A stretch of 35,429 nucleotides of DNA from Candidatus Woesearchaeota archaeon (GCA_026394935.1 JAPLZR010000081.1:4178-39606), one strand, 5' to 3'. Shown: positions 20,354 through 26,905, counted from the first letter of the stretch. A program made the numbers and translations. Notes: generated from the letters alone by a model not told the origin.

Positions 20354-21407
20354 GGATTACTATAAAGTTCTTGGAGTTGAGAAGGGTGCTTCTCAGGATG
20401 AGGTTAAGAAGGCTTACAAGCGTTTGGCTAAGAAGTATCATCCTGATTTGAATAAGGAGGCTGATGCTTCTGATAAGTTTAAGGAGATTAATGAGGCTGC
20501 TGCTGTTCTTGGTGATCCTGATAAGCGTCAGCAGTATGACCAGTTTGGCACTGCTGATTTTGGTCAGCAGGCTGGTTTTGATTTCCGCGATTTTGCCGGT
20601 GGTTTTAATTTTGATGATATTTTTGACCAGTTCTTTTCTGGTTTTGGTTTTAAGTCAAAGCGTGGCGGTCGTCCTGGCAGGGATTTGGTTGCAGAGGTCG
20701 ATATTACTTTGGAAAACGTTTCAAAGGGGACTACAACTGAGATTGAGATGCAGCGTTCTGTGACTTGCAGTGAGTGTCGTGGTAAGGGTGGAAAGAATTT
20801 TGTTCAGTGTTCTGATTGTCAGGGTCAGGGTATGGTGAGGCATGCTAAGAGGACTCCTTTTGGTGTGTTTGCTACTACTTCTTCCTGTGGTGCCTGTAAG
20901 GGTACTGGCGAGGTTGCTGAGAATGTTTGTGAAACCTGTGATGGTGATGGCGTTATTGTGAGCAGGGAGCCTGTTAAGGTGAAGATTCCTGCTGGTATTG
21001 AGGATGGTATGAAGTTGCGTGTTTCCGGCGAGGGCGAGGCTGGTAGTCAGGGTGCTTCTGCTGGTGATTTGTATGTTATCGTTCACGTTCTTGAGGATGA
21101 AAGGTTTGCGAGAGTTGAGAATGATTTAGTGATGGACCAGCCAATCAGCTTTTCCACAGCGTGTTTGGGTGGAGAAATTAGTGTTGAAACATTAGCAGGC
21201 AAAAAGAAGGTTGACATCAAGCCCGGCACCCAAAATAATTCTGAAGTGCGCTTGAAAGAAGAGGGTTTGCCTGACTTGAGAAGCAGTCGTGTCGGTGATT
21301 TTGTGATTAAAGTCAGTGTTGAAGTTCCTAAGAAGGTTTCTAAGAAGCAGGCTGAATTATTGCAGGAGTTCGAGAAGGAAGGCAAGAAGAAGTGGGGCTT
21401 GTTTTAA
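20346..21407 (+). CDS. dnaJ: Co-chaperone DnaJ (type I)
   Basis: J domain with HPD (KKYHPDLN), a G/F-rich linker, and four CxxCxGxG zinc-finger repeats ([32 protein letters not shown]). Confidence 0.96.
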
Positions 21408-21408
21408 T

Positions 21409-22143
21409 CTAATCTTTGTGATGCCAGTATATTACTGCAAAAAAGCTTGCAATAGCGAGGATTGCTTCAAAGCCTGGCGTGGTTGAATGTGCTGTGTCAT
21501 TTTCAATTTCTATTACTTCTACTTTTCCAGTATCTAAGTGGTATTTAGCGCCTATGATTGTAACTTTTTCTTCTTTGACGTACTCTTCTGTAATTGGGCT
21601 GTTTTCCAGTATGTTTTTGATGCCCAGCTTCACGTTTTCATCAATGGCATTATCTAATAGATTTCCTGGTTTGGTTTTGGCTATTTCCACTGCTGGCTCT
21701 ATTTGATCTGTGATGCTTCTGATATTTCCTCCAGCTGGTCCTTGAAGAGCTGCTGAAACTGCTCCGCAGCTCTGGTGTCCTAACACGATGATTAGGGGCA
21801 CGTGCAGGTGTTCAATGCTGTATTCGATAGAGCCCAGTTCAATGGGACCTACCACGTTGCCTGCTACGCGAACGATGAACAAGTCTCCTAGTCCTTGGTC
21901 GAATAATAGTTCTGGCGGGACTCTGGAGTCAGAACAGCTGACAATTGTTGCAATTGGATACTGTCCTGTAATCAGCTCGGCGCGTCTGATTGAAAAGTCT
22001 CTGACAGTTTGTTCACCAGAAGCGAAGCGTTGGTTTCCGTTCATCAGTTGTTTCCAGGCATTGTCAGCATCTGCTGCTGTTGCAATAGCGGAAAATGATA
22101 ATATTAAAAATAATGTGAGAATGATTGTTAATCTCTTTTTCAT
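21409..22143 (-). CDS. Secreted beta-class carbonic anhydrase with PGF-CTERM-like anchor
   Basis: Sec signal MKKRLTIILTLFLILSFSAIATAADA. Beta-CA zinc ligand motifs CSDSR and HQSCG. The C-terminus is TTPGFEAILAIASFFAVIYWHHKD. Confidence 0.88.
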   Translation of the reverse strand: MKKRLTIILTLFLILSFSAIATAADADNAWKQLMNGNQRFASGEQTVRDFSIRRAELITGQYPIATIVSCSDSRVPPELLFDQGLGDLFIVRVAGNVVGPIELGSIEYSIEHLHVPLIIVLGHQSCGAVSAALQGPAGGNIRSITDQIEPAVEIAKTKPGNLLDNAIDENVKLGIKNILENSPITEEYVKEEKVTIIGAKYHLDTGKVEVIEIENDTAHSTTPGFEAILAIASFFAVIYWHHKD

Positions 22144-22188: not shown

Positions 22189-23073
22189 TTACGTAAGTTC
22201 TTCATCTTCAATTTCGCTTATGTACTCTAATGTCGTTGGATCTTTATCTGATTCATAGGATTTTCTTAAGTTTTCAATGGCGTTTTTCCTTAACTCGGCT
22301 CTTTCCTGTAAATCCGTGCGGTGGTAGCTGAATTTGTCTTGAGCATTGCCTAGTGCATAAAAATCACAGGACTCGCCGTCTGAATTCGCGATTTCTTGAA
22401 GGTATTTTATTCCTCTTTGAAATAGCGTGGTTCTTTGCTGCGCATCCATGCTTAAATCATCTGAGTCAGCCATATCTATGAATGTCCTGGCAATATAGTG
22501 TAGTGTATCGGGCGTCAAATTCTGGGCAGAATCGAGTTTTTGGGCTTCTCTATAAGCTTCCTGTAAAACTGGCTGGTCGTCTTCATGTGAGCAGTTCCAT
22601 AATTTGAATAGGTTTACGACAAGTTCGGACTGATAGTCTGGGTATGTTCTTGCTCCTTTTTTTAGGTGGGCTATTGCAGAGGCGTAATAAGTTGCTGCCT
22701 CTTCATCATTCATTGACCCTGCCATTTGTGATTCGATGCTTGCCAGGTCGAAATAGTCTGTGGGTGTTCCTCTTGTAGCGACAGCCAGTTCATACACGTT
22801 TTTTAATATGAGCATAATATCTAATGATTTGATTCCGTGCAATTCGCCTGCTTGGTTTATGGTGACGTAATTATCGGGGATCTGTGAAAGAACCTGTTCT
22901 AATGCGAAAGTGGTCATGTCAACGAAATAATGGCTGAGAGGTTGTTCTGGTTTCTCTTCAGTTTTTTGTTTTATTCCTATTTTTTTCAGTATGAATTCCA
23001 GTAAGCCCATGTGTTTTTGTTGGCTTTCAGGATGTTTATAAAACTTGCCTTCATGACCACTATGAAATGACAA
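22189..23073 (-). CDS. Hypothetical alpha-helical (repeat-like) acidic protein
   Basis: 294 aa from TTG 23073 (alternative ATG at 23010). Last gene of the minus-strand kinase cluster. No family recognised. Confidence 0.6.
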   Translation of the reverse strand: MSFHSGHEGKFYKHPESQQKHMGLLEFILKKIGIKQKTEEKPEQPLSHYFVDMTTFALEQVLSQIPDNYVTINQAGELHGIKSLDIMLILKNVYELAVATRGTPTDYFDLASIESQMAGSMNDEEAATYYASAIAHLKKGARTYPDYQSELVVNLFKLWNCSHEDDQPVLQEAYREAQKLDSAQNLTPDTLHYIARTFIDMADSDDLSMDAQQRTTLFQRGIKYLQEIANSDGESCDFYALGNAQDKFSYHRTDLQERAELRKNAIENLRKSYESDKDPTTLEYISEIEDEELT

Positions 23074-23108
23074 TGTTTATCGCGCCAGAAATTTAGAAGT
23101 GGCTTGCT

Positions 23109-23330
23109 TTACTTCGTTGTCTGGAATATTGGTTCTGCTATTCCTAGAATGGTGGCAACTATTCCGCCGAAAATGCCTGCTTCCAGCAAATGTTCAAGTA
23201 TTACGCCGGTTGAGCCCTTGGTGTTGAATTCTCCGACTTTTTTCAGACCATAGGCGTTTCTCATTGGAATTGAGATTTGTTCGCTTATCGGGTTGAGTAT
23301 TCTTTGAAGGTTGTTTTGTGATATTTTGGC
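23109..23330 (-). pseudogene. Second copy of the kinase C-terminal tail module, intact frame but no own start
   Basis: 23113-23330 aligns to 24738-24955 at a constant offset of 1625, with 21 mismatches in 218 nt and no indels. It translates without stops to AKISQNNLQRILNPISEQISIPMRNAYGLKKVGEFNTKGSTGVILEHLLEAGIFGGIVATILGIAEPIFQTTK*. It overlaps the 3' end of the 475-aa ORF in a different frame. Confidence 0.8.
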
Positions 23331-24712
23331 ACTCGTATATCATCTAATGATAACGGAATGAAAGCTCCTTTTCCATTCTTATGGCCTTTATAATGTTCAA
23401 TGTGAAGTTTTTCTTTAGGATTTGTTAATCCGATGCTTCTTTGCATCGCATAAACCTCGGCTGCAAGTGTGGTAGTTCCTATGACTGGCGGCAACCATAG
23501 TCCTAATTGTCGGTTTAGTTCTGTTGTGATTATTTCTCTTGTAATGCAATAGAGTTTGGCTTGGTCTTTATATTCGCTTTCATCTGCTAATCTTTCCAGT
23601 CTTTTTGCTTTTTTTGGGTCTTTTTCGTACATTTCTTTAGGAGGATATTTGATTTCTTTTGGTCCTGTCAATTTTTGCATAATCTTTTGTGAAGTGGCAA
23701 CTAGCATTTCTGCATCTGTTGCAACTCCATTAAAGCCGGATTCTCTGACGTAATGAGCGCCTGTTAAGTCGCTGACACCGCCAATTCTGATGTTTTGTTC
23801 GTGAACCCAGCCGTGTGTAATTCCGAGTTTCCAGATTATTGCCATGTCTCTGGCCGCAGAGCGTATAATGTATTCGGCGAATTCTTTATTTGACATGCCT
23901 AAGGCTTCAGCAACATCCCGCAAATTTTCATCGTAATGCGATAATGGTGGTGAAGATTTGACTGCTCTGATGTATGCTCCCAGTTCTTGTCCATCAAATT
24001 GAGTGAGTGGAAATTTATATGCTGCAACTAAAACTACGCTATCGTAACCATTTGAGTTGAGATTTTTGAGCATATCGATTGAATTGTTCATTCTTGCAAC
24101 AGTTAAACCACCGGCACATTCCCCGCCATCACAATAGTTTTGTCTTAGGTCAATGGGTTTTTCGCCAAAATTGACGCCTTTTACTTCTAATAGGTAGGGT
24201 TGTCCGTTAATTATTACTGGTTTTTCAAATGCGGCTGTTCTTCCAGTGGTCCATTTCATCCGCGCAACTTCCATTTGGATAGTTTCGCCGGTTGTTCTCA
24301 ATCCAAATAAGGATGGTCTAAAGAATGGTGTGAGAGAAGATACGCCGAGTTGCGTTAAAATGGCTTCTAAATCTTTATGTGCATAAACTAAATCAGCACC
24401 TTGTAAAATGTCAAAATCTCTATTTACTAATCTATACTCCTCAGTCGCTTGATCAGATGAATTTCCTGTTTCAAAACCAACAGCTCGCTTCCAGAATCCT
24501 TTTTCTTCTCTGGCTAAACCTTTACTGCCTGGCAATATTTCTGTTTTTGCATTTTTGCAAACAACTTTTTCAACTCCTTTTTGTCCTGGCAACGGTTCGG
24601 AAATGATGTGCTTATATCTGGAGAAGTCAAATACATAGGTCTCTTGTTCTGGCAGCATGATATCCTCTACTTTGCCGTTTATGACTGCCCGTCCATTTCT
24701 TATTTTAGTCAT
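23285..24712 (-). CDS. Atypical protein-kinase-like fold protein (APH/RIO/Kdo-like catalytic loop)
   Basis: 475 aa. GITHGWVHEQNIRIGGVSDLTGA resembles the HGDxHxxN ... D(F/L)xx catalytic and Mg-binding loops of atypical kinases. The assignment is by eye only. Its last 15 codons read the duplicated kinase-tail DNA in the +1 frame. Confidence 0.7.
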   Translation of the reverse strand: MTKIRNGRAVINGKVEDIMLPEQETYVFDFSRYKHIISEPLPGQKGVEKVVCKNAKTEILPGSKGLAREEKGFWKRAVGFETGNSSDQATEEYRLVNRDFDILQGADLVYAHKDLEAILTQLGVSSLTPFFRPSLFGLRTTGETIQMEVARMKWTTGRTAAFEKPVIINGQPYLLEVKGVNFGEKPIDLRQNYCDGGECAGGLTVARMNNSIDMLKNLNSNGYDSVVLVAAYKFPLTQFDGQELGAYIRAVKSSPPLSHYDENLRDVAEALGMSNKEFAEYIIRSAARDMAIIWKLGITHGWVHEQNIRIGGVSDLTGAHYVRESGFNGVATDAEMLVATSQKIMQKLTGPKEIKYPPKEMYEKDPKKAKRLERLADESEYKDQAKLYCITREIITTELNRQLGLWLPPVIGTTTLAAEVYAMQRSIGLTNPKEKLHIEHYKGHKNGKGAFIPLSLDDIRVPKYHKTTFKEYSTR

Positions 24713-24733
24713 TTCGTCATCTAAGAGTTTGTT

Positions 24734-26554
24734 CTATTTCGTTGTCTGTAAGATTGGTTCTGATATTCCTAAAACTGTTGCTAGTATTCCGCCGAAGACG
24801 CCTGCTTCCAGTAAATGTTCGAGCAGTATGCCGGTTGAACCTTTGGTGTTGAATTCTCCGACTTTTTTCAGGCCGTAGGCGTTTCTCATTGGAATTGAGA
24901 TTTGTTCGCTTATTGGGTTGAGTATTCTTTGAAGGTTGTTTTGTGATATTTTGGCGTTGGAAAATAGTGATGCGAATGCGCTGCCTTCTCTGTATCCTAT
25001 TGCGTTTTGTGCTGTTGTTGCGTAGTCGTTCATGGTATTGATTAGGTTTGCTGGTGTGTCTCCTACAACTTCTGATATGATTTCTTTGTCAGATAGGTTT
25101 CTGACGTCGTACAATATTTTTTTGACTTTTTCTCCTGCTTCTGCTGTTCTTTCGTCGCTTAATTCTGCATAGTGTTGGCCGATTAAGTATACTGGCACAG
25201 AGGCTGCAGCTACTGTTCCTAGTTTGAGCAGGTTTCTTCTGGACGTGTTTTTTGAGGCGCTGAATTGTTTGTCAGTGAACAGTTCTAGTCCTTCTTCGTA
25301 GAACATTAGTGCTGCTCCGATTGAGCCGTAAGCGCAGGCTAGTATTGCTATTTCTCCTGCAAGGTTGGCTTTTTCTTTATTTATTTCGAAATTGTTTTCA
25401 GAGTGGTCGAAGAATGGTTGTTTGCTGACTGAGGCTATTTTGTTTGTGATGTCTTCTGTGTTGTCTCTCCATTTTTTTACTGTGTCTTTGTCAGGCAGGC
25501 CTTTCGGAACTTCCCAGTAATAGACTGTTTCTGTCTCGATTCTCAGTGTCACGTTTCCGTCCATGTCTACTTCAGGTACTGTTCTGGTTTCAGTTCTGCT
25601 TTTGTAATACTGTTTTTTGTAATGGCTCCAGAGGTTGTCTAAATCATTTTTGACTGAGGTAAAGCATCCTTCAAGCTGGTTTATGCTTTGCTGGTATTCT
25701 TTTATTTTTTCTACAGGGCTTAGTTTGACTACCGGGTATTCTTTTCTGCTGATTAGGCTTTTGACAGCAAGTCCTGCTACTGGAATGAGGGCGCAGAATT
25801 CTGCGATTTTTGCCCAGGTGCCTTCAAGGAATTGTCTTCTTGGGAGTTGTTTTGCATTGTTTAAAACTAGGTAGAATATTACGCCAAGGCTGTAGAGGTC
25901 GAATCTTTTGTCTGGGTTTTTGTGCTCTTCAGGGTCTGGTGGGAAATATCCGAGTGTTCCTTCCAGGCCTGCTGATTCTTTTGTTCTGGAAAGTGATTGT
26001 CTTAATGACATTGAGAATTCTGGGTGTTCTGTTATGATTTTCCCTAATCCGAAGTCTGATATCTTGGCTTGGTTGTCTGGTGTGATCAGTATGTTGTTTG
26101 GTTTTAAGTCCTTGTGGATTAATCCTGAGTCGTGTGCTGCCTGAAGTCCTTCTATCGTTTGGTTCATGATTTGATAGAGTTTGTCATTGGTTATTTCTGT
26201 TACATCAAGGGCTTTTAGGCCTTCCACGTAATCCATTATGATGAATGGTGATGGCTCAAAGCGGCCGTAGAATGATGATGCTGCATCGAATCCGTGGACT
26301 CTTAGCACGTTCGGATGTCTGATTCCTGAAACGAGTCTGTATTCTTTTTTCAGTTCATTTACAAGGTGGGTTTTGTTTTCTTTTAGGAATTTTAGGGCGA
26401 ATTTTCTGTTGTCTTTTTCAGCGAGGTACACTACTCCAAATCCGCCTTCGCCAAGTTTTCTGATGATTTTGTGCCCTGCGATGGTTCTGCCTGTGAAGTC
26501 TGAACTGTTCCAGGGCTTTTCATTCTCTTTTTGCAGACTGTTTTCTAGAGTCAT
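24734..26554 (-). CDS. Hanks-type Ser/Thr protein kinase with membrane-spanning C-terminal region
   Basis: 606 aa. Contains GEGGFGVVY, ALKFL, HKDLKPNNIL, SDFGLGK, GTLGYFPP and DLYSLGVIFY. Several hydrophobic segments follow the kinase domain, and the hydrophobic tail is GILLEHLLEAGVFGGILATVLGI. Confidence 0.92.
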   Translation of the reverse strand: MTLENSLQKENEKPWNSSDFTGRTIAGHKIIRKLGEGGFGVVYLAEKDNRKFALKFLKENKTHLVNELKKEYRLVSGIRHPNVLRVHGFDAASSFYGRFEPSPFIIMDYVEGLKALDVTEITNDKLYQIMNQTIEGLQAAHDSGLIHKDLKPNNILITPDNQAKISDFGLGKIITEHPEFSMSLRQSLSRTKESAGLEGTLGYFPPDPEEHKNPDKRFDLYSLGVIFYLVLNNAKQLPRRQFLEGTWAKIAEFCALIPVAGLAVKSLISRKEYPVVKLSPVEKIKEYQQSINQLEGCFTSVKNDLDNLWSHYKKQYYKSRTETRTVPEVDMDGNVTLRIETETVYYWEVPKGLPDKDTVKKWRDNTEDITNKIASVSKQPFFDHSENNFEINKEKANLAGEIAILACAYGSIGAALMFYEEGLELFTDKQFSASKNTSRRNLLKLGTVAAASVPVYLIGQHYAELSDERTAEAGEKVKKILYDVRNLSDKEIISEVVGDTPANLINTMNDYATTAQNAIGYREGSAFASLFSNAKISQNNLQRILNPISEQISIPMRNAYGLKKVGEFNTKGSTGILLEHLLEAGVFGGILATVLGISEPILQTTK

Positions 26555-26557
26555 GTT

Positions 26558-26905
26558 TTATTGTGTCAGAAATTTAGAAAGCTCGCCTATTACATATAAT
26601 TTCATGTGTGAGTCGAATGTTCTTTCATGGTCGTAACTGCGCACTGCGTAGTCGAAAGCTTCTCTTGCTACCCTTTTCGCTTCTTTTAAATCCGCATCAG
26701 AATTGTTAAAATTGCACATGTCTTTTGCAAGCATTTCGATTGTTGGAGTGAATTCGTGCAGCAATCGTTTATTTGCTTTCGTATCACCTTCTTTTGATAG
26801 ATCTATCAGCGTGGTTATTCTGCCTTTTGTGTGCGCTTCTCTTGTTGTTTGAGGGCACATTGCTGTCCAAACACCAACCGCCTCATTAATCCTGTACTCA
26901 CTCAT
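26558..26905 (-). CDS. Hypothetical protein; possible sigma-70 region-2-like helical domain
   Basis: 115 aa, ending 3 nt before the kinase start. REAFDYAVRSYDHERTFDSHMKLYVIGELSKFL loosely resembles the sigma r2 pattern (A...FD..R...F.tYa...I.GEi.r.L). A TATA-like AAAGATTTATAAAC lies about 25 nt upstream. Confidence 0.6.
   Translation of the reverse strand: MSEYRINEAVGVWTAMCPQTTREAHTKGRITTLIDLSKEGDTKANKRLLHEFTPTIEMLAKDMCNFNNSDADLKEAKRVAREAFDYAVRSYDHERTFDSHMKLYVIGELSKFLTQ

Follow-up and report, generated by a model that had tools for sequence, protein, structure and literature searches.

A kinase gene end stranded behind a kinase-like neighbour in a Woesearchaeota genome: the probable scar of a recombination event at a 9-nt microhomology

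The DNA analyzed here is a stretch of 35,429 nucleotides (the window, whose coordinates are used throughout) from a single metagenome-assembled genome (MAG) listed as "Candidatus Woesearchaeota archaeon" (GCA_026394935.1, JAPLZR010000081.1:4178-39606). It contains the gene for a Hanks-type Ser/Thr protein kinase, the 3' end of which is present a second time behind the neighbouring gene, an open reading frame (ORF) for a 475-aa protein. This second copy (copy 1; the end of the kinase gene proper is copy 2) is intact and lies in the -1 frame relative to the ORF that runs into it. We suggest that copy 1 is very probably a recombination scar, i.e., the original 3' end of the kinase gene that was displaced by 1.6 kb when the neighbouring gene was recombined into the locus at a 9-nt microhomology. 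An earlier note on this DNA had listed four explanations for the out-of-frame tail: programmed or transcriptional slippage, a recent frameshift mutation, a sequencing indel, and an orphan recombination cassette. It is the last of these that receives direct support from the collinearity of the locus with related contigs, the structure of the junction, the native ends of orthologous proteins, and the sharing of alleles between strains. The features that carry the argument are the following.

24734-26554, minus strand: Hanks-type Ser/Thr kinase, 606 aa (Pfam Pkinase, E 6.8e-35, profile positions 3-210 of 263)
24729-24955, minus strand: repeat copy 2, comprising the last 73 codons of the kinase gene, its stop codon and about 5 nt; 3' flank collinear with type-A loci
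23285-24712, minus strand: 475-aa ORF (NCBI NTW67_04430), predicted protein-kinase-like fold of the SelO/YdiU kind (orthologue alignment, AF2, Foldseek)
23324-24712, minus strand: native part of the 475-aa ORF, ending ...DDIRVPK (orthologue alignment; the DNA of contigs L001 and L010 ends VPK-TAA)
23288-23323, minus strand, stop codon at 23285-23287: non-native 12-codon extension of the 475-aa ORF, YHKTTFKEYSTR (out-of-frame reading of the repeat)
23322-23330, minus strand: putative recombination junction, 9-nt microhomology GCCAAAATA (three-way junction comparison)
23104-23330, minus strand: repeat copy 1, probably a kinase allele's displaced 3' end (an orphan); own TAA at 23109-23111; collinear with type-B contigs
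22189-23073, minus strand: 294-aa gene, family without a known domain; directly 3' of the kinase gene in related strains

On the minus strand, the order of the genes is a 115-aa gene (26905 to 26558), the kinase gene, the 475-aa ORF, tail copy 1, the 294-aa gene and a gene for a beta-carbonic anhydrase; dnaJ and dnaK are located on the plus strand and are convergent with this row. The C-terminal region of the kinase is of a multi-pass hydrophobic type, with hydropathy peaks near residues 250, 400 and 580.

The duplicated kinase tail

A repeat search detected a single direct-repeat family in the window (23104-23330 and 24729-24955), the ungapped members of which are spaced by 1625 nt and are 89% identical; this similarity is far beyond chance. 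The tail matches only these two places in the window (tblastn, E 1e-43 to 1e-46). Column comparison reproduced the counts that the earlier note had given for 23113-23330, namely 21 mismatches in 218 nt without any indel at an offset of 1625, with only three of them (23247, 23250, 23289) in the 105 nt nearest to the junction, and minus-strand translation confirmed that copy 2 encodes the last 73 residues of the 606-aa Pkinase-domain protein. Copy 1 is indeed still open in the tail frame: 76 codons extend from just past a TGA to its own TAA and read AKISQNNLQRIL...EPIFQTTK, a translation that includes copy-1-specific peptides such as GIFGGIVATILGIAEPIFQTTK. The probability that the frame stayed open by luck alone is modest (0.40). 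The 475-aa ORF enters the repeat one base ahead and terminates after ...VPKYHKTTFKEYSTR, so that the tail frame is -1 relative to this ORF, and the T4 run at 23324-23327 is likewise present as described.

Two strain-specific arrangements meet in the window

A degenerate DNA pattern of the tail retrieved three metagenome contigs and found nothing in the GTDB species-representative genomes; additional contigs were obtained through look-ups of homologues of the kinase and of the 294-aa protein. A protein search with the 73-aa tail alone gave two candidates, a number that is limited by the word index of the search and is no measure of breadth. Two arrangements can be distinguished. In type B, represented by five contigs (L002, L003, L005, L006, L014), a full or partial kinase gene with this tail is directly followed by a homologue of the 294-aa gene, with no 475 gene in between. 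In type A (L001, L010), the kinase tail is followed by a spacer, a 475-family gene and the 3' end of dnaJ.

The window matches both. Type-B contigs align from the 294-aa gene (22202-22252) through copy 1 up to 23326-23330 and, after a jump of 1,625 nt, continue in copy 2. Collinearity of copy 1 and its flank was found for L002 (93.5% identity) and L003 (90.8%) as well as for L005, L006 and L014. The type-A contigs align from the kinase gene through copy 2 and the 475 gene to 23311, and L001 resumes in dnaJ at 21403. The corresponding end points in BLAST comparisons are 23330 for the type-B and 23311 for the type-A contigs. In multiple alignments, copy 1 and the spacer that follows it (TAAAGCAAGCCACTTCTAAATTTCTG...) match the kinase end and spacer of L003, and copy 2 and its spacer match the kinase end, the spacer and the beginning of the 475 gene of L001. 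Homology between the two copies ceases about 5-8 nt past their stop codons, with a type-B spacer after copy 1 and a type-A spacer plus the 475 gene after copy 2. A simple tandem duplication in which the whole unit was repeated was rejected on account of this difference in the flanks. As L005 possesses the genes found upstream in the window (HTH_45, 215 aa and 115 aa, at 90% DNA identity, and the kinase gene), it represents the same locus and not a paralogue. Judged by these alignments, the window is a type-B locus with 1,625 additional bp that comprise a spacer, the 475 gene and one copy of the tail or, equivalently, the left part of a type-A locus spliced to the right part of a type-B locus at the 9-mer. 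In more distant Woesearchaeota and Nanoarchaeota, the 475 and 294 families are found in unrelated neighbourhoods without the kinase; hence, the adjacency of the kinase and 475 genes is recent and local.

The native end of the 475-aa protein and the origin of the frame offset

If the tail belonged to the 475-aa protein, fused proteins should be found in orthologous loci, a check that the earlier note had proposed. A hypothetical fused protein (the 475 body through VPK, followed by the tail) was used as the query against approximately 5.8 billion protein clusters. Nine homologues of the 475 body (446-467 aa, 44-91% identity) were recovered, each covering the body only, and three kinases matched only the tail part; a fused protein was not found among these clusters, and the tail is present in none of the nine orthologues. 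In the alignment of these orthologues, the C-terminus of the family lies at, or at most two residues from, VPK. The closest two (91-92% identity) end with ...DDIRVPK exactly at the repeat junction, this being the end of P0001 and P0015. P0001 (91% identity; contig L001) has the C-terminal sequence ...AFIPLTLDDIRVPK, encoded by DNA that reads GTG CCT AAA TAA and is directly followed by the stop codon of the convergent dnaJ gene, and the gene of L010 (92% DNA identity) ends GTG CCA AAA TAA (GTGCCAAAATAA). The native stop codon is thus positioned exactly at the repeat junction. No meaning attaches to the protein similarity that the earlier note had perceived immediately upstream of the repeat (GKGAFIPLSLDD versus GSAFASLFSN), as this stretch is the conserved native C-terminus of the 475 family and also occurs in genomes without a nearby kinase.

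The junction itself can be reconstructed base by base. The 475 gene of L010 ends GTGCCAAAATAATTC and the kinase tail starts AACGCCAAAATATCAC (GCCAAAATATCA; AACGCCAAAATATCA at the 9-mer); the window junction, GTGCCAAAATATCAC, is the exact product predicted for a crossover between them, without indel or filler. The 9-mer GCCAAAATA is perfectly shared by the end of the 475 gene of L010 and the start of the kinase tail. The only two places at which the 35-kb window contains it are the heads of the repeat copies. In the 475 gene it is read as G CCA AAA TA (the last codons and the stop), in the kinase gene as GCC AAA ATA (the first codons of the tail), and it is this placement of the 9-nt microhomology in the two parental frames that generates the -1 offset. 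Since the run of four A residues is present in both parents (GTGCCAAAATAA in L010, GCCAAAATATCA at the tail start), neither an indel nor a sequencing error or frameshift mutation is needed, and the corresponding two proposals of the earlier note were rejected.

Recoding or a separate small protein

The earlier note had raised the possibility that a tRNA slip links the tail to the 475-aa protein. Under this proposal, programmed -1 frameshifting or transcriptional slippage at CC-A-AAA-T would attach a 71-residue tail and yield a second, membrane-anchored isoform. The tail frame is open from three codons before the junction to its own stop codon, and sterically tRNA-Lys could slip from AAA to A-AA in the P site; for A-AAA/A-AAG, single P-site slippage has been documented, including in the archaeal fucA1 gene (PMC1616953). 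However, the overlap, read in the 0-frame as GTG CCA AAA TAT CAC AAA ACA ACC TTC AAA GAA TAC TCA ACC CGA TAA, offers no X-XXY-YYZ heptamer; with G-CCA-AAA-T in the 0-frame, only a single-tRNA A-AAA slip is conceivable. Transcriptional slippage would need a longer run than four A residues. For the 136 nt that begin at the site, the folding energy is -19.5 kcal/mol compared with a mean of -18.3 for shuffled sequences (z = -0.40; 73 of 200 shuffles were as good), and in the kinase gene this sequence is an ordinary part of the coding region. When one adds that none of the nine orthologues is fused or tailed, that the native stop lies exactly at the junction, that the position of the 9-nt microhomology in the two frames fully explains the geometry of the overlap, and that the arrangement is confined to a single assembly, slippage lacks a heptamer, a stimulatory structure and orthologue support alike, and we consider a recoded product extremely improbable.

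Copy 1 might instead be expressed alone, because the NCBI pipeline has called a small ORF within it.

23109-23264, minus strand: 51-codon ORF in copy 1, NCBI hypothetical protein NTW67_04425; starts at a tail-internal Met

This reading, in which a small membrane protein is translated from the internal ATG at 23264, for instance by re-initiation, can point to an ATG-started frame of 51 codons that includes the hydrophobic segment of the tail and begins just 20 nt downstream of the stop codon of the 475-aa ORF (23285-23287). It seems very unlikely to us: no TATA-like box or Shine-Dalgarno-like motif is present in the 40 nt upstream, the initiating Met is an internal residue in every kinase allele, and the protein forms a singleton cluster among approximately 15 billion proteins. 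There is no sign of independent conservation either, and the four private changes of copy 1 are too few for a test of selection. We therefore infer that copy 1 is not translated and that NTW67_04425 is probably an annotation artefact of a gene fragment. In the same set of approximately 15 billion proteins, neither the window-type 475-aa product nor the 51-aa ORF occurs outside this MAG.

Allelic variation gives copy 1 the look of a selected sequence

The pattern of conservative substitutions in copy 1 had been taken in the earlier note as an argument for selection or very recent conversion. Statistically, purifying selection is apparent, as the two copies differ by only seven amino-acid changes for 22 coding-nucleotide differences, where random substitution predicts 15.2 (none of 20,000 simulations was as low). 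When both copies were compared with six functional kinase tails from other contigs, 19 of the 23 sites that distinguish the copies turned out to have the copy-1 state in one or more functional alleles. Copy 1 equals L006 over codons 57-64 (GTT GCC ACC ATT CTA GGA ATA GCA) and 66-68, with one synonymous difference in codon 65, and this stretch holds the I, A and F residues previously regarded as conservative substitutions. Private changes number four in copy 1 (two synonymous, one V to I, and one TAG to TAA) and five in the functional copy 2. Selection thus acted on functional kinase alleles before the rearrangement, and the selected appearance of copy 1 stems from allelic variation that had accumulated in working kinases; purifying selection on copy 1 in situ was rejected as the cause of its conservative changes.

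Likewise, the cleaner proximal half calls for no special event. The copies differ at 5 of 126 proximal and 17 of 93 distal nucleotides, a distribution that mirrors the general conservation of the tail (86-98% DNA identity across alleles in the proximal half, 69-92% in the distal half, and 67-97% in the 150 nt upstream) and is largely explained by it. In the distal half, copy 1 is 82% identical to copy 2 and 69-84% identical to the alleles of other strains. The case for recent gene conversion alone as the origin of the clean proximal half is therefore weakened, since that half is the most conserved part in all alleles. With low probability, conversion or some recent history in common may have affected the proximal half (128 nt) alone, where both copies share states at tail nucleotides 3, 122 and 128 that are absent from the six other alleles.

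The first 37 or so tail codons (24845-24955 and 23220-23330) are conserved at 86-98% DNA identity, synonymous sites included, among L001-L006 and L014. This degree of conservation exceeds what the protein seems to need; it may stem from homologous exchange at high frequency or from a nucleic-acid function that overlaps the coding sequence.

How the arrangement may have arisen

From these data, we infer the direction of the event and the number of its steps as follows. Copy 1 would once have been the 3' end of a kinase allele located directly before the 294-aa gene, as is seen in the five type-B contigs. A type-A segment consisting of a kinase 3' end, a short spacer and a 475-family gene would then have been joined into this type-B locus. 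The right-hand join would have been illegitimate, connecting the last codons of the 475 gene to the resident kinase gene at GCCAAAATA, 219 nt upstream of the resident stop codon; the left-hand join would have been homologous and situated within the kinase gene. Such an event with one-sided homology between co-existing strains (homology-facilitated illegitimate recombination, HFIR) would duplicate the tail instead of replacing it, and the Campbell-type insertion of a circularised 1,625-bp piece would lead to the same product. As a result, the kinase would retain a complete tail in the form of copy 2. The TAA of the 475 gene would have become TAT, with 12 extra codons read from the repeat in the wrong frame, and the resident copy 1 would have been left without a start codon, still followed by the spacer native to it, by the promoter-like TTTATAAA box and by the 294-aa gene. 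The event would be too recent for decay of copy 1 to show.

Several points weigh against this reconstruction. The arrangement has been found in only one assembly, a MAG, and is known from assembled sequence. The body of the kinase adjoining copy 2 is closest to the type-B allele of L005 (95.9%) and not to that of the sampled type-A contig L001 (89%), so that any assignment of donor and recipient is tentative; moreover, the kinase alleles are mosaics (L002 is L001-like upstream at 96% and L005-like in the distal tail at 92%), and no sampled parental pair is close enough to trace the crossover. Copy 1 is free of any decay, which we attribute to the presumed recency of the event. To our knowledge, mechanisms of DNA uptake and recombination have not been characterised for Woesearchaeota. 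Finally, the three private states shared by the copies are explained by an in-genome duplication, or by later conversion of the proximal half, no less well than by a one-step event between strains.

An intragenomic route would begin in a type-A genome with the kinase allele of the window, in which a perfect 9-nt direct repeat would exist at exactly the spacing observed. Slippage or unequal crossing-over between the two GCCAAAATA 9-mers, 1,625 bp apart, would produce a tandem duplication, which would later be altered by type-B replacement of its distal part or by proximal conversion. The shared private states, all within the proximal 128 nt, and the uneven spread of differences between the two halves fit this course, and the conserved proximal half is a natural site for a homologous crossover. 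Yet at least two events are needed where one event with one-sided homology suffices, no contig found contains a tandem 475-475 intermediate, and the shared states could be polymorphisms of the local population, there being no other allele from the same sample for comparison. We regard this route as unlikely, though worth keeping in mind; it also ends in a scar, reached by another path.

It is highly improbable that type-A and type-B strains living side by side were merged into a chimera during assembly and that no real genome has two tail copies. It is true that the window is a MAG contig, that type-A-like and type-C contigs occur together in at least one other sample (SRR12594517; L010 and L015), and that the window contains a second oddity, an in-frame deletion in the kinase gene (see the following section). 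On the other hand, the two parents share only 9 nt at the join, far below the k-mer or overlap length of assemblers, so that a mis-join would not be expected, and the copies differ at 10% of their positions and are consequently not collapsed or duplicated reads. An integrative element was also considered and rejected: the 1,625-bp unit holds only the 475-aa ORF, which has no Pfam or NCBIfam match.

The recombination scar is an ordinary strain-specific rearrangement of a known kind, recorded in a single MAG, and calls for no new mechanism. Its main value is corrective: an intact and seemingly selected out-of-frame segment can be mistaken for recoding, and it is the sister strains that reveal it as a stranded kinase end. 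It also uncovers two probable annotation problems: a likely gene fragment entered as NTW67_04425, and an extension of 12 residues in NTW67_04430 that is not native. Beyond this, the locus provides a base-resolved case of microhomology-mediated gene insertion and of strain-level flux in gene content in a DPANN archaeon, where recombination is little documented. The 227-bp direct repeats should permit loss of the 475 gene by homologous recombination, which would restore the type-B arrangement.

The proteins encoded in the locus

The 475-aa protein matches no Pfam or NCBIfam family at E<=0.01, and a sequence-profile search of the PDB with the 475 family gave only a spurious, coiled-coil-like match. 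Among the GTDB species-representative genomes, a single, distant locus was detected with the family profile. An AF2 model was obtained with a pLDDT of 81.8 and a pTM of 0.86; residues 464-475 score below 50, i.e., the 12-residue extension is modelled as disordered. The best PDB matches of this model in Foldseek are YdiU/SelO chains (E 7e-7 to 1e-5, probability 1.00, TM 0.36-0.42), followed by eukaryotic-type kinases. The label "kinase-like" that the earlier note had attached to this ORF is hence correct at the level of the predicted fold, with no match to a sequence family. Invariant residues of the 475 family include an HEQN...D motif (H304, E305, Q306, N307 and D315). Judging from the model, the 475 family may be an undescribed archaeal family of pseudokinases.

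Compared with three other alleles (L005, 702 aa; L006, 691 aa; L001, partial), the kinase of the window (606 aa) is short of approximately 90-96 residues. The deletion is in frame, is located at 25853-25870, and extends from after DLYSLGVIFY (subdomain IX) to LPRRQFLEGTW, thereby removing the last C-lobe helices of the kinase domain and the linker. This could mean an impaired kinase in the strain concerned or a collapsed assembly at this position.

As listed, the 294-aa ORF begins with TTG. Gene calls in relatives begin at an internal ATG (MGLLEF..., 23010), which is probably the likelier archaeal start, and a TTTATAAA box is found about 30 nt upstream of it. The 294-aa family adjoins the kinase in close relatives only; in one Nanoarchaeota genome it adjoins NYN and NTP_transf_2/HEPN genes. 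Two further features lie in this part of the window.

23076-23098, minus strand: 23-nt motif TTCTAAATTTCTGGCGCGATAAA, located in the spacer that separates copy 1 from the 294-aa gene; second copy at 26557-26579
21409-22143, minus strand: beta-class carbonic anhydrase with an archaeal PGF-CTERM signal (Pfam PGF-CTERM, E 0.0026, weak and under the family cutoff)

The carbonic anhydrase has a signal-like segment at its N terminus, and its gene is separated by a gap of 1 nt from the dnaJ stop codon. It is missing from the corresponding place in L014 and L001 and appears to be another strain-variable cassette.

A strain-variable slot between the kinase gene and dnaJ

At least four arrangements of the interval between the kinase gene and dnaJ are found among near relatives whose dnaJ genes are 88-93% identical.

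Kinase, 475, dnaJ: L001 and probably L010 (23 nt of the dnaJ end, then divergence)
Kinase, 294, dnaJ: L014
X, 294, 386 aa, dnaJ: L015
Kinase, 475, displaced tail, 294, carbonic anhydrase, dnaJ: the window

On this sequence evidence, the interval is a gene slot whose content varies between strains. Between the 294 homologue and an inserted 386-aa gene of L015 lies a 39-nt remnant of the dnaJ 3' end (positions 1128-1166, with an 8-nt gap); the real dnaJ end follows beyond the insert. The similarity of the remnant to L015 2364-2411 and L014 3490-3540 was reached by none of 500 shuffles. With its succession of repeat, insert and repeat, this remnant has the same signature as the tail pair of the window and thus points to a second scar at the same slot. 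In the window, the interval from the 294-aa gene to the carbonic anhydrase gene was examined for a comparable dnaJ-end remnant, and none was found. The last 15 nt of L010 diverge after the 23-nt dnaJ end (AAAGCACAATACTTA), which hints at a further arrangement with a dnaJ remnant, in a stretch too short to judge.

The 23-nt motif (TTCTAAATTTCTG(R)C(R)C(R)ATAAA) has exactly two matches in the window with at most three mismatches, at 26557-26579 and 23076-23098, while none of 100 shuffled sequences contained any. The first match comprises the last codons and the stop codon of the 115-aa gene (...SKFLTQ, stop), just before the ATG of the kinase gene; the second is positioned just after copy 1 and before the 294-aa gene and, in frame, reads ...SKFLAR followed by a stop. 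The motif flanks the kinase gene on both sides in L005 and is found upstream of the 294 homologue in L015. This pair could be the remnant of an older insertion, that of the kinase gene itself, or a shared regulatory element.

One may speculate that the slot is a site of recurrent cassette exchange in this Woesearchaeota population, with one-sided homology provided by conserved gene ends and each capture stranding a copy of an end. We consider a process of this generality improbable. If it operated, the captured genes would be those for the 475-aa SelO-like protein, the 294-aa protein, the carbonic anhydrase and the 386-aa protein, and the proximal kinase tail and the 3' end of dnaJ would serve as anchors. 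The tail copy of the window, the dnaJ remnant of L015 and possibly the pair of 23-nt motifs would then be successive layers of one process, a toxin-free archaeal counterpart to C-terminal displacement arrays in which the 227-bp repeats keep the 475 gene excisable.

Comparison with known systems

The locus shares with systems of programmed -1 frameshifting (dnaX, transposases of the IS3 family, fucA1) two overlapping frames, of which the downstream one is -1, and an A-rich tetranucleotide in the overlap. It differs from them in that the overlap has no heptamer, stimulatory structure or conservation and in that the orthologues end at the site. The one proven archaeal case of -1 frameshifting, fucA1 of Saccharolobus solfataricus, depends on A-AAA-AAT with a flanking stem-loop and yields an essential full-length product (PMC1616953), none of which applies to the junction in the window.

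The 475-aa protein resembles the AMPylating/UMPylating pseudokinases SelO/YdiU in its predicted kinase-like fold and in its size (the YdiU/SelO chains measure 460-478 aa). The relationship is distant, however, with a TM of only 0.36-0.42 and 10-15% identity, and the 475-aa protein has no sequence match in Pfam, NCBIfam or PDB.

Integrative elements that target the 3' ends of genes and are bounded by attL and attR also produce a repeat-X-repeat structure in which the element-proximal copy completes the gene and the displaced native end remains next to its native flank. In contrast to these elements, the 1.4-kb insert of the window carries no integrase or recombinase, its sole gene having a kinase-like fold. 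The 475 family is found in ordinary chromosomal contexts of other Woesearchaeota, and the repeat measures 227 bp at 10% divergence instead of being a short, identical core.

Close counterparts are the systems with C-terminal displacement. Stranded 3' ends or orphan genes are found behind the genes of Rhs proteins, of contact-dependent inhibition (CDI) systems and of effectors of Vibrio cholerae's type VI secretion system (T6SS), and HFIR logic has been proposed for them (PMC5361080; PMC3240628). The differences should be kept in view. The gene in the window encodes a membrane Ser/Thr kinase and not a polymorphic toxin, and there is no immunity gene. Pfam and NCBIfam scans matched no toxin or immunity family among the neighbours, which are the 294-aa protein and the kinase-like protein. 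The displaced tail, a conserved hydrophobic C-terminus with mostly V/I/L changes, contrasts with the variable tip of a toxin, and the co-variation of tail alleles with downstream genes is not strict (L003 combines a type-A-like tail end with a type-B neighbour). Furthermore, the host is a DPANN archaeon, a group in which HFIR has not been demonstrated, and only one layer of displacement is present in the window. Nevertheless, three features of HFIR-type events are found here: copy 1 is collinear with its native flank, the insert is collinear with the alternative arrangement, and the junction lies at a microhomology. As in the Rhs, CDI and T6SS loci, a module would be anchored by homology in the upstream gene while microhomology joins its far end, the 3' end of the resident gene is pushed downstream as a start-less and initially intact fragment that still precedes its original partner gene, and different strains carry different modules in the same slot.

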